Below are positions 19,053 through 22,000 of a stretch of DNA of 64,000 bases, piece by piece. The stretch is taken from positions 6,448,001 through 6,512,000 of the forward strand of contig OZ231126.1 of the NCBI GenBank assembly GCA_965153355.1. Reading direction: 5' to 3'. The notes under the pieces were generated by a model. The model saw nothing but the letters and a program-made list of their open reading frames with translations, did not search any database and was not told where the DNA came from. Made by a program: the position numbers and the translations under genes. Within the stretch, counting starts at the first letter, position 1. Each line of letters opens with the position of its first letter. This DNA comes from Flaccisagitta enflata (lineage: Eukaryota).

Positions 19053-22000
19053 TTACTTTCTTTTTCCGGATTTTGATTTCTTTGCTCCAACAAAGTAAGC
19101 CTTTCTGCGATCATTATCCTTCACCTGACTGGCATAGAGTTTACATGGACCCTTTGCGCACAAATTGCCAAGGTATGACACTTCATGTTTTGAATTTGCA
19201 CGGTCTCCATTATAGTACAGCTCTATTTTTCCTAATCTTTTGTCAACCAGAATTTTTTCCTCAACAAACTTTGCAATTGTGTCTATGGTATCGCAGGATT
19301 GAAATTTCTGGTTGATGGCATCTCCTGATCCTGGGACATCAATTTCAACATCAATCTCCCACCTATCTTTGACATGGATCGAGTGGGTGACCAAAGTGTC
19401 ACATCCAAGGGAACTGATACAGCTTTTGGTCCTTAAAGCGGTCCCTTTCTTGGGGTCAGTGTCACTACCAAGCTTACCCTCATAAGTAACCAAGAGTGGA
19501 TTGTGCTTGTTAACTGGCAGTCTAATTTTGATTTTGCTTCTCAGGGAATCAGCTTCATCTGCGTCATCTGGAGCATAAAAAACTGTTTCACACTCAGTTC
19601 CATCCTCAAGAAAAGCCTTTGCTTTTAGTAATGGAAACTTGGGTATTGCCAGTGTGCCATCTTTCCTTGCTTTGGAGTAAGCCTTATCCTCACATGTCAT
19701 AAATGCATCTGCAAACAGCTTCATATCAGGATCTGGATAGGGTTGAAAGTGGACATCTGCGGCAAAGCTGTGCATTATCAGCCACGGGAAAATATTTCTG
19801 ATCTCTCTGAATATGTGTGGATTTTGTTGTGTCTTAAAGTGAGCAGCTAGATTTCGACCTACTCTTACTAATGCAGCAACACTGCATGTTACCCCACTCA
19901 ATTTCTTTTTGTCCACCTTGAACTTGTCATAGAGAGGTTCCAAGTGCACATTCCAGTTCCCGGTTGTTACCAAAGAATTGTTCCTCTCGAGATTACTGAA
20001 GTCCTTTACATAGAGGGCTGAGCGGTGTTTAGCACTGAGATCCACCATATGCTCTCTGACTGGTCTGACATGCTTGAAAAATTTGTCAAAGGAATCCTTG
20101 GCAAATGTAGGATGTTTCCTTATAATCAATTTATCGCTGATTGGCTTGGTTGTTAGTACCAACATCAAATTTTGTGTCTCAAGCAGGTCTTCCTGAGGTG
20201 GTGGTGGATTTGAAAATGGAGAAAGATCCAACTCACCAACTGGGTACATAGTCCTCATCACTTCAATGGCCAATTGTGTTGGTAAGCAACTCTTCAATGA
20301 TCCACATCTGGCGCCTCGTTTCATGTCTCTTTTACTGGGACATTCTAACGCATTACCATGACATCTAGGGTTTGCCTCATATTTTCCGTGATCACATTCT
20401 AAAGCATTGACAATGCATTCCAGCTTACAGTCTTCATCATCAAGATCAATTCTTGAGGAGAGCTCATTCAGCATAACCCAAGCGGCCTCTTCTAAGATGT
20501 CAGGACTCAGTAGTCTTACCTTTAAACTAACACCCTTGCCTTTGTGATAAAAGTGATTGTGTTTGAGAACAATCTCAATGTTTTCCACTTTTATCACTCT
20601 GGCATTTTCAATGGAAAACTCTACTAGTTCTGAGGAACCCATTGTACAAAGTGTCTCCATGACTGAAAGGACTGATATACAGCAACTGGAGAATGTCCTT
20701 TTTTGCACTGGGCTCTCTAATTCAAAGCATATTGCCACCTCAAATGCCGCTTTTTCTGATGTATGTTCCTGGATCCACAAATCCTGGTTTTCTGATTTCT
20801 GAAACCGTAATTGGGGGAAGTCATACATCTGCAAATCATTCCATTTGTCCTTTATCAGTCTTCCCATTTTCATTGCCCTCAAATGTGCAAGAAATGATGA
20901 AACTGCGGTTAAATCAGCATTTGCTGGGCAGAGTTTGAGATTTTCAAACGTGATTCGAGTTGGGTTTGTACCCTCTGCCAGAAGATGGGTCATGTGCTGA
21001 AACATAGCATGAATGTGCTCTAAAGGCATATGACCCAGAGTGAATTCATGATGCAACGATGAAATGTCAAGCCCCTTCTGGGTAGCAAAACTCCCAAGGG
21101 CTATTTCACTCTTGTGGGTGAAAATAGATTTCAAGAAAATGGAAAGATCCTCAAGCTTGTGGAAGATGGTTGACTTTCTCAAAGGATCATTGGACCAAAC
21201 AATTTTGCCCATAGCACTCAAAGCCCTCAGCATGTAAACTAGATCGTCTTCTTTCATACCTGACTTTTCCAACATCTCAGCAAATTCAACAAATGATTTG
21301 TTTTGGAAACCATTCAATAGCAAGTCAACCATGGGCTGCCATTGATCTTGTATCAGTATTTTTGGCGTACGTGACAAGCAGGTGAGCAGATTGTCCTGAA
21401 GATGATTGTATCCTTCCTTGCTCTTTGTCGAGCTGATGAAGGAAACACAATCTAAATGGAATGTGGGCATATGCTTTACTTTGTTAACCTGCTTGCTGAG
21501 CTTACTGACTGTATGCCTCTTCTCTTTCAATTCAGCTGTTGTTGCATTCAAGCTCTTCTTGTCCGCAGTGGCTTCCACATCCTTTAATTCCTGATCAATG
21601 TCTCTCAGCTTAGCCCAGAGTTGCGCCTCACGTTTTTCTCTATTCTTTCTCAACTCTTTTAACTTAAGCTCAAACAGATCTTTAAGCATTTGTCTCCAAC
21701 ATTCCTTTTTCTCCAACCTTTCCTCCTCTTTGACTGTGTCCATTTTGGAGATGACAATTTTGAAATGTGGGCTGATTGTCCCATCCAAAATCTTCTCAAC
21801 CCACTTCCATGCCTTGTTTTCCAATGTTGCTGGACTGTCGAAGTGACTGGGATTGAGCAAAAGAACATGCAAACCGTTATCTTGACTAAGTATGCCGATG
21901 CACGATTCACACTCCTTGTGTCCTCCAGGATCGACCATTGTCACTTTTGCTGACTTAATGCGGGTAATATGCACATCAAACGCCTGAGTGCGATCTTCCG

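Follow-up and report, generated by a model that had tools for sequence, protein, structure and literature searches.

A probable ROCO-family animal gene from Flaccisagitta enflata with a predicted KEN-type ribonuclease domain and a ubiquitin-like tail

Introduction

What would control a KEN-type ribonuclease (RNase) domain that has no kinase in front of it? The textbook RNases IRE1 and RNase L are activated by the dimerisation of kinase-type domains. This question is raised by a gene on the minus strand of a 64,000-nucleotide stretch of DNA from Flaccisagitta enflata (NCBI GenBank assembly GCA_965153355.1, contig OZ231126.1, positions 6,448,001 to 6,512,000 of the forward strand), which we refer to as the window and in whose coordinates all positions are given. 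A first-pass annotation made from the sequence alone had noticed a KEN-like segment with an R-N-x3-H motif in this gene and had suggested that it was captured from an IRE1/RNase L-like gene whose kinase was subsequently lost. Here we describe a computational analysis of what this segment is, what precedes and follows it, and how it might be switched.

The window looks eukaryotic in that stop codons break most reading frames and long simple repeats are frequent. Amid this stop-rich DNA, a single open frame on the minus strand stays intact for 1119 codons from its first possible start (19053-22412) or 1161 codons from stop to stop (19053-22538). The best explanation that we can offer for this frame is an animal gene of the ROCO family whose output would be a KEN/HEPN RNase and whose product would end in a tail of ubiquitin-like (UBL) domains; taken as a whole, we regard this reading as moderately probable. 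ROCO proteins, i.e., LRRK2 and its relatives, are textbook GTPase-COR dimerisation devices whose physiological output is still debated.

A KEN-like segment with an invariant R-N-x3-H motif

The segment in question comprises residues 767-905 of the 1119-codon frame (19698..20114, minus strand; from HPTF to FADAF) and is predicted to form an all-helical HEPN domain of the KEN type. The peptides that had originally drawn attention to it all share one frame of the minus strand (ETQNLML at 20160-20180, HPTF at 20103-20114, LERNN at 19977-19991, and FPWLIMHSF at 19764-19790), and RNLAAH occupies 19839-19856 exactly as claimed. The latter string corresponds to R853-N854-L-A-A-H858, i.e., an R-N-x3-H motif of the more general Rx4-6H type, which we consider to be the putative active-site motif of the domain.

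An exhaustive phmmer search with the last 430 residues against 1.84 billion representative sequences recovered 31 proteins at an expect value (E) of no more than 1e-3. None of these relatives bears a name other than "hypothetical", and their contigs measure ca. 2-5 kilobases (kb). Three of them, on contigs of ca. 3.6-4.8 kb, are full-length (1124-1187 amino acids) and can be aligned along the C-terminal part of the query. Word-indexed homologue searches with the KEN region and with the whole protein returned no sequence, and one with the family alignment returned a single member that was already known (P0024), a yield that reflects the word filter of these searches and does not speak against further relatives. 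In the trimmed alignment of this family (A2), R853, N854, and H858 are invariant in all 17 sequences that reach the motif, a count that leaves out 4 of the 21 sequences as fragments ending before it. Further invariant residues are E809 (18/18), G818 (19/19), and W820 (19/19). The sequences that share the invariant Arg, Asn, and His are only 29-43% identical to the window protein, and the preservation of these three residues in 17 sequences at such divergence points to selection on the active site.

Profile searches link the same segment to one particular family. Ribonuc_2-5A (PF06479, the KEN domain, with a curated cut-off of 23.3 bits) is the only Pfam family matched by the KEN segment, with E 0.0018 and 18.8 bits for a piece of 233 amino acids and E 7e-4 and 20.2 bits for a piece of 178 amino acids, in which residues 805-864 (19821-20000) align to positions 24-81 of the 127 positions of the model. 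A Pfam scan of the whole protein did not report this family at E<=1. When the window piece was scanned together with 20 homologues, 8 of these 21 sequences matched Ribonuc_2-5A at E<=0.1 (best E 3.2e-5), and it was the sole recurrent family among them, GTPase families aside. One homologue (P0017) exceeds the curated cut-off with 24.5 bits and E 3.2e-5 over model positions 22-89, another (P0005) covers 96 of the 127 model positions (10-105; E 5e-4), and two more (P0024 and P0011) match at E of ca. 0.02. Each match runs collinearly across 54-96 model positions, with the Arg of R-N-x3-H always near model position 71-72. Other HEPN families, including those of the DZIP3, Swt1, or RnlA type, had no Pfam match at E<=1 in the KEN segment or in 10 homologues.

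The structural comparisons point in the same direction. We used two predicted structures, i.e., an AlphaFold2 model of residues 730-907 built from a 21-sequence alignment (model 1; mean predicted local distance difference test score (pLDDT) 74.6), which is helical throughout, and a model of residues 540-900 that also includes the preceding domain (model 2, ma954ec570d1c; mean pLDDT 76.3). With model 1, Foldseek placed IRE1 chains at ranks 3, 9, 10, 12, and 13 with 20-24% identity and E of ca. 2. When Foldseek's 273 candidates were re-aligned with VIA-align, ranks 1-8 were all taken by KEN domains of IRE1alpha at Z scores of 4.8-5.1, in a range below 8 that is common among helical models. These rows superimpose 87-94 residues (model 73-171 on IRE1alpha 855-963) with a root-mean-square deviation of 4.0-5.1 Å and 17-20% identity, as compared to 3-11% identity for most unrelated rows. 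The RNase L chain 4oav_B follows with Z 3.7 (model 77-173 on 621-717), and chain 3fbv_A of yeast Ire1 aligns through residues 1005-1115 to model 73-174. Simple arithmetic on these ranges would place R853 and H858 within 1-2 residues of what we take to be the catalytic Arg and His of RNase L as well as of yeast and human IRE1, which is indicative only. With model 2, the top Foldseek match was the bacterial HEPN RNase RnlA (NRD and HEPN domains; E 0.009), a weak and independent hint of a HEPN-type arrangement. As far as these models go, structure thus lends the KEN assignment support that is specific but weak. A homodimer prediction for two copies of this two-domain region gave a score of 0.00; it was run without an alignment and its fold is uncertain, so that it weighs neither way.

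From the recurrent collinear profile matches, the invariant motif, and the structural comparisons together, we consider it probable that the segment is homologous to KEN domains. In this respect the first-pass annotation had seen correctly: a KEN-like domain with an intact R-N-x3-H motif is borne out by the Pfam matches, by the invariance of the motif, and by IRE1 and RNase L among the top re-aligned structures.

Most homologues additionally carry a Cys/His-rich insert (C...C-x-C) between the first KEN helices, where the window protein has a deletion (ca. 20010-20040, minus strand; residues ca. 792-797). Possibly a small metal-binding knuckle, this insert would have been lost in the window copy.

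A predicted ROCO scaffold upstream and ubiquitin-like domains downstream

The remainder of the protein, which the first-pass annotation had left out, would consist of a scaffold of leucine-rich repeats (LRR), Roc, and COR upstream and of two UBL domains downstream of the KEN-like segment. Immediately before the short linker that leads to the KEN-like domain, residues ca. 545-729 (20226..20780, minus strand) are predicted in model 2 as an alpha/beta domain with blocks of pLDDT of ca. 77-96. VIA-align matched this domain to the COR-B domains of ROCO proteins: LRRK1 (8e05_A) at Z 8.1 over 156 aligned residues, LRRK2 (8tzc_A) at Z 8.1 over 145 aligned residues, C-terminal structures of LRRK2 in general at Z 6.5-8.1 over ca. 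138-149 residues starting from residue ca. 1677, and the COR domain of C. tepidum Roco (3dpu_B with Z 6.7 and 130 aligned residues, and 3dpt_A; Z 6.5-6.7). Some small alpha/beta domains come within one Z unit of these matches, e.g., phosphoglucomutase with Z 7.5, but they cover only ca. 88 residues.

Further upstream, residues 109-225 (21738..22088, minus strand) form a predicted Roc-type GTPase domain with a P-loop GxxxxGKT at 22053-22076 (residues 113-120), a DxxG motif at 21921-21932 (residues 161-164), and SKMD in place of NKxD at 21738-21749. Two full-length homologues exceed the Pfam Roc cut-off of 27 bits (P0003 with 30.4 bits and P0006 with 28.2 bits). In addition, residues 73-208, i.e., the P-loop together with the segment before it, are matched at E 0.0027 by 4wnr_A, a chain that was deposited as "Leucine-rich-repeat protein" and is the only PDB match of the whole protein. 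Between Roc and the putative COR-A region (residues ca. 320-545) lies a long coiled-coil-like insert with weak matches to BAR and syntaxin families.

The LRRs that would complete the scaffold are encoded separately. The 42 codons that precede 22412 contain no in-frame ATG, and the start codon of the gene must therefore sit in an upstream exon. A candidate acceptor, in which a pyrimidine tract precedes the AG at 22452-22451 (AG|GA, with the boundary at 22451|22450), lies close to where the homology of the relatives starts and would define a main coding exon of 19053..22450 (minus strand; stop codon at 19053-19055). On this strand, an open reading frame located ca. 7.5 kb farther upstream (29880-31274) matches LRR_8 with E 6e-64 and corresponds to a probable upstream exon of ca. 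12 LRRs (29933..31274, minus strand) that ends at a canonical GT donor, the intron starting at 29932. This donor (G|GTAAGT at 29933|29932) is in phase 1 and leaves one base, which fits the two-base phase of the acceptor at 22451|22450; the predicted joint 29933|22450 restores a Gly codon, and the LRR periodicity runs through it. The LRR exon, an intervening simple-repeat-rich intron of 7482 nucleotides (22451..29932, minus strand; read from the sequence), and the main exon are thus probably one gene.

Downstream of the KEN-like domain, two tandem UBL domains of the beta-grasp type are predicted at residues ca. 930-1014 and 1017-1095 (19128..19625, minus strand). They were recognised with a family profile (A4). 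Its matches to single di-ubiquitin chains (E 3.6e-5 to 2.5e-4) take in the last part of one unit and the whole of the following one, and its matches to polyubiquitin reach 5e-16, while the UBL domain of UHRF1 matches the first unit at E 0.08. The window protein's own tail has no Pfam match. It lacks a C-terminal Gly-Gly and continues as a basic tail to residue 1119.

Read from the sequence in this way, the order of domains would be LRR, Roc GTPase, coiled coil, COR with its COR-B-like part, a short linker, the KEN-like HEPN domain, and two UBLs.

Weighing the alternatives

Several observations count against this reading and have to be weighed, beginning with those that concern catalysis. Thirteen residues before the Arg of the motif, which we take to be the offset of the catalytic Tyr in IRE1 and RNase L, 15 of 17 family members carry a Gly and not an aromatic residue, and the caveat of the first-pass annotation that this Tyr is not conserved in register is therefore well placed. 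The missing aromatic residue may mean an altered specificity or a non-catalytic role. On the latter view, the segment would be a true KEN/HEPN homologue that serves as an RNA-binding, dimerisation, or regulatory module and not as an RNase, and non-catalytic HEPN domains such as MtlR indeed exist (described in PMC3710099). We nevertheless consider this unlikely: according to the same source, HEPN domains without catalysis typically lose the Rx4-6H motif (PMC3710099), whereas Arg, Asn, and His are kept here in every sequence that reaches it, and most HEPN families function without the Tyr in question.

A different concern is that the likeness to KEN might be due to convergence or chance, i.e., that R-N-x3-H is a fortuitous string in an unrelated helical domain or that the segment belongs to a different HEPN family. 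The window's own KEN piece stays below the Ribonuc_2-5A cut-off (20.2 vs 23.3 bits), and 6 of the 10 homologues that were scanned singly, including all 3 full-length ones, have no match to this family at E<=1. When PDB sequences were searched at E<=10, neither the profile of the family's KEN region (A2) nor a broader family profile (A1) recovered a chain of IRE1 or RNase L, and a single-sequence search of the PDB with the KEN piece returned nothing. A protein atlas first offered only low-scoring clusters (0.80-0.84) of HEPN types distinct from KEN and then, in a second search, no usable match. On the side of structure, both models were built on only 21-23 sequences, the KEN part of model 2 has a pLDDT of only ca. 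50-80, and Foldseek gave no match at E<=0.001 for either model. Moreover, a Foldseek-independent VIA-align search of 48,161 chains ranked yeast Ire1 (3fbv_A) only 20th at Z 4.0, with unrelated helical proteins above it at up to Z 4.8. What speaks against chance is the convergence of the remaining evidence on KEN: the same single Pfam family recurs collinearly across the homologues and passes its cut-off in one of them, no other HEPN family of Pfam is matched at E<=1, and the re-aligned IRE1alpha domains stand apart from most unrelated structures in sequence identity. On balance, we find an accidental resemblance distinctly unlikely. For the Ribonuc_2-5A and AlphaFold-Foldseek comparisons that the first-pass annotation had suggested, the result is divided: the former exceeds the cut-off with P0017 and recurs in part of the family but stays below it with the window piece, and the latter puts IRE1alpha first upon re-alignment but not by Foldseek's own statistics.

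The ROCO part of our reading has its own difficulties in that Pfam Roc scores only 13.7 bits (E 0.075) on the window protein vs the cut-off of 27, and in that the Pfam COR models are unmatched in the window protein and in 10 homologues.

The remaining alternative is the one with which the first-pass annotation had accounted for the stretch ETQNLML...KPIS...KHPTF, which it read as the last helices of a kinase C-lobe. This stretch largely falls into the linker of residues 730-766 (20115..20225, minus strand), which consists of one helix (11-26 in model 1 and 201-216 in model 2) and a loop, adjoins the COR-B-like domain directly, and separates that domain from HPTF by ca. 37 residues. The reading of ETQNLML...KPIS as a kinase remnant is not supported, as the ca. 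185 residues before it are confidently predicted to form the COR-B-like domain (Z 6.5-8.1 over 130-157 aligned residues). The idea that the gene descends from an IRE1/RNase L-like kinase-KEN gene whose kinase decayed down to its C-lobe helices can appeal to the HP-x-F before the first KEN helix, which presumably resembles the end of many kinase domains, and to LRRK-type ROCO proteins with a kinase after COR, which make an ancestral COR-kinase-KEN order conceivable, but it is highly improbable given the mere ca. 37 residues available for a remnant, the lack of any match to a protein kinase family (E<=1) when the whole protein and 10 homologues were scanned, and the alignment of all three full-length homologues without extra sequence at the COR-B/KEN junction, and we have rejected it. 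The same negative kinase search upholds the other half of the original claim, i.e., that no kinase precedes the KEN-like domain.

A proposed mechanism and its relation to known systems

We thus return to the reading of the gene as a ROCO protein with a KEN-type effector, in which the KEN-like domain, judging from its sequence, would be homologous to the RNase domains of IRE1 and RNase L and would have diverged from them while keeping R-N-x3-H. HEPN RNases build their active site from the two Rx4-6H motifs of a dimer, and KEN domains use the Arg, the residue next to it, and the His for catalysis (PMC3710099). In ROCO proteins, in turn, dimerisation takes place via the C-terminal half of COR, and it has been proposed that Roc-COR dimerises in a nucleotide-dependent manner and has the domain next to it as its output (PMC4104024). 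With a COR-B-like domain directly before the KEN-like domain, the simplest model is that Roc-COR switching pairs the KEN domains.

In this model, two KEN domains would come together to form a metal-independent active site from their two Rx4-6H motifs, as in other HEPN RNases. Their pairing would be driven by the nucleotide-dependent dimerisation of Roc-COR, which would switch on RNA cleavage and take over from the kinase-type dimers that do so in IRE1 (kinase) and RNase L (pseudokinase). Sensing or autoinhibition would fall to the LRRs, and the tandem UBLs, not being conjugatable, could act as an adaptor or regulatory tail that recruits partners. On this model, the KEN-like domain is probably switched by Roc-COR dimerisation, and the protein would most likely serve as an innate-immunity or stress RNase from a lineage-restricted, expanding family. 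A more far-reaching version, in which the protein is an invertebrate, GTPase-gated analogue of RNase L that runs from an LRR sensor via Roc-COR dimerisation to an active KEN pair and signals downstream through its UBL tail much as OASL and ISG15 make use of tandem UBLs, is a tentative proposal that we consider possible but doubtful.

The comparison with RNase L (ankyrin repeats, pseudokinase, and KEN) is the closest in layout. Both proteins would combine an N-terminal repeat sensor and a nucleotide-binding dimerisation module with a C-terminal KEN domain of the PF06479 family that carries R-N-x3-H, and both have a probable role in defence. The window protein differs from RNase L by having LRRs instead of ankyrin repeats, Roc and COR instead of a pseudokinase, two UBLs after KEN, and no conserved aromatic residue at the presumed catalytic position. 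We know of no link between 2',5'-oligoadenylate (2-5A) and the window family.

IRE1, which consists of a lumenal sensor, a transmembrane segment, a kinase, and KEN, provides the best structural matches, and the conserved blocks of its KEN domain are collinear with those of the window protein, including the shared R-N-x3-H. Unlike IRE1, the main exon in the window encodes neither a kinase nor a lumenal domain. The N-terminal KEN helices also remain unaligned, with the structural matches beginning only at model residues 73-77, and, consistent with the offsets in the re-alignment, the loop that joins the motif to the conserved helix after it is presumably shorter than in IRE1.

KEN domains without a kinase are known as such. 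Anantharaman et al. (2013, PMC3710099) describe solo expansions in Oikopleura and monocots as well as fusions to UBI or BRCT domains. The window protein resembles these in having KEN apart from a kinase, one of the described forms being likewise fused to a ubiquitin domain, but no Roc, COR, or LRR partner of KEN is mentioned in the passages of that paper on KEN, whose Additional file 1 may list more architectures (PMC3710099). We found no description of a Roc-COR-KEN architecture in the literature, with the same limit regarding this additional file. What is new is therefore the architecture and the control logic that it implies, and not the kinase-less KEN domain itself (PMC3710099).

Among ROCO proteins such as LRRK1, LRRK2, MFHAS1, and the bacterial Roco proteins, the order LRR-Roc-COR is shared, and COR-mediated dimerisation is what we have taken as the switch principle. 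The difference lies in what follows COR: a KEN-like RNase domain and UBLs in the window protein, a kinase with WD40 in the LRRK proteins, and nothing in MFHAS1.

Marine invertebrates are reported to have lineage-specific expansions of HEPN effectors on scaffolds of nucleoside triphosphatases (NTPases) (PMC3710099 and PMC8195603). These immune effectors, e.g., DZIP3-type HEPN with NACHT, LRR, or Death domains or TRADD-N with HEPN, combine an NTPase switch and repeats with a HEPN RNase effector, as the window protein would, but, as described in these sources, they are STAND NTPases with other HEPN families, whereas the gene studied here pairs a Roc GTPase with a HEPN domain of the KEN type.

If Roc-COR is indeed wired to KEN, RNA cleavage would be a simple readout of Roc-COR switching for the fields studying either system, and an RNase L-like effector would be added to invertebrate innate immunity. 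The OAS/RNase L axis is reported to be missing in at least one mollusc (PMC9334734). If the protein is a GTPase-gated analogue of RNase L, KEN domains could be controlled by the switch of a G domain instead of a kinase fold, and the output of a ROCO protein can be an RNase.

Related and neighbouring sequences in the window

A decayed partial copy of the tail that follows the KEN-like domain (equivalent to residues 885-1075) lies at 15228..15982 on the minus strand and was found by tblastn with 49-53% identity in two frames (E 2.9e-36). It has acquired in-frame stops and a change of frame, an interspersed repeat truncates it at the upstream end, and it stands outside the functional gene. Its presence suggests a local duplication within the gene family. 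A short translated element with the string ...IPGTNPWWKK... occurs at 15983-16134 and again at 17007-17168, flanking the region between the gene and the decayed copy, and is probably an interspersed repeat.

Low-complexity and microsatellite tracts at 23764-29013, 37786-38593, 51865-53725, 56484-57551, and 59095-60710 give rise to open reading frames 150-450 codons long, on the two strands and in several frames at once, none of which is a gene. Finally, an exon fragment of GTP-dependent phosphoenolpyruvate carboxykinase (PEPCK) at 4199-4936 on the plus strand (Pfam PEPCK_GTP, E 7e-40, frame residues 136-239) belongs to an unrelated neighbouring gene.

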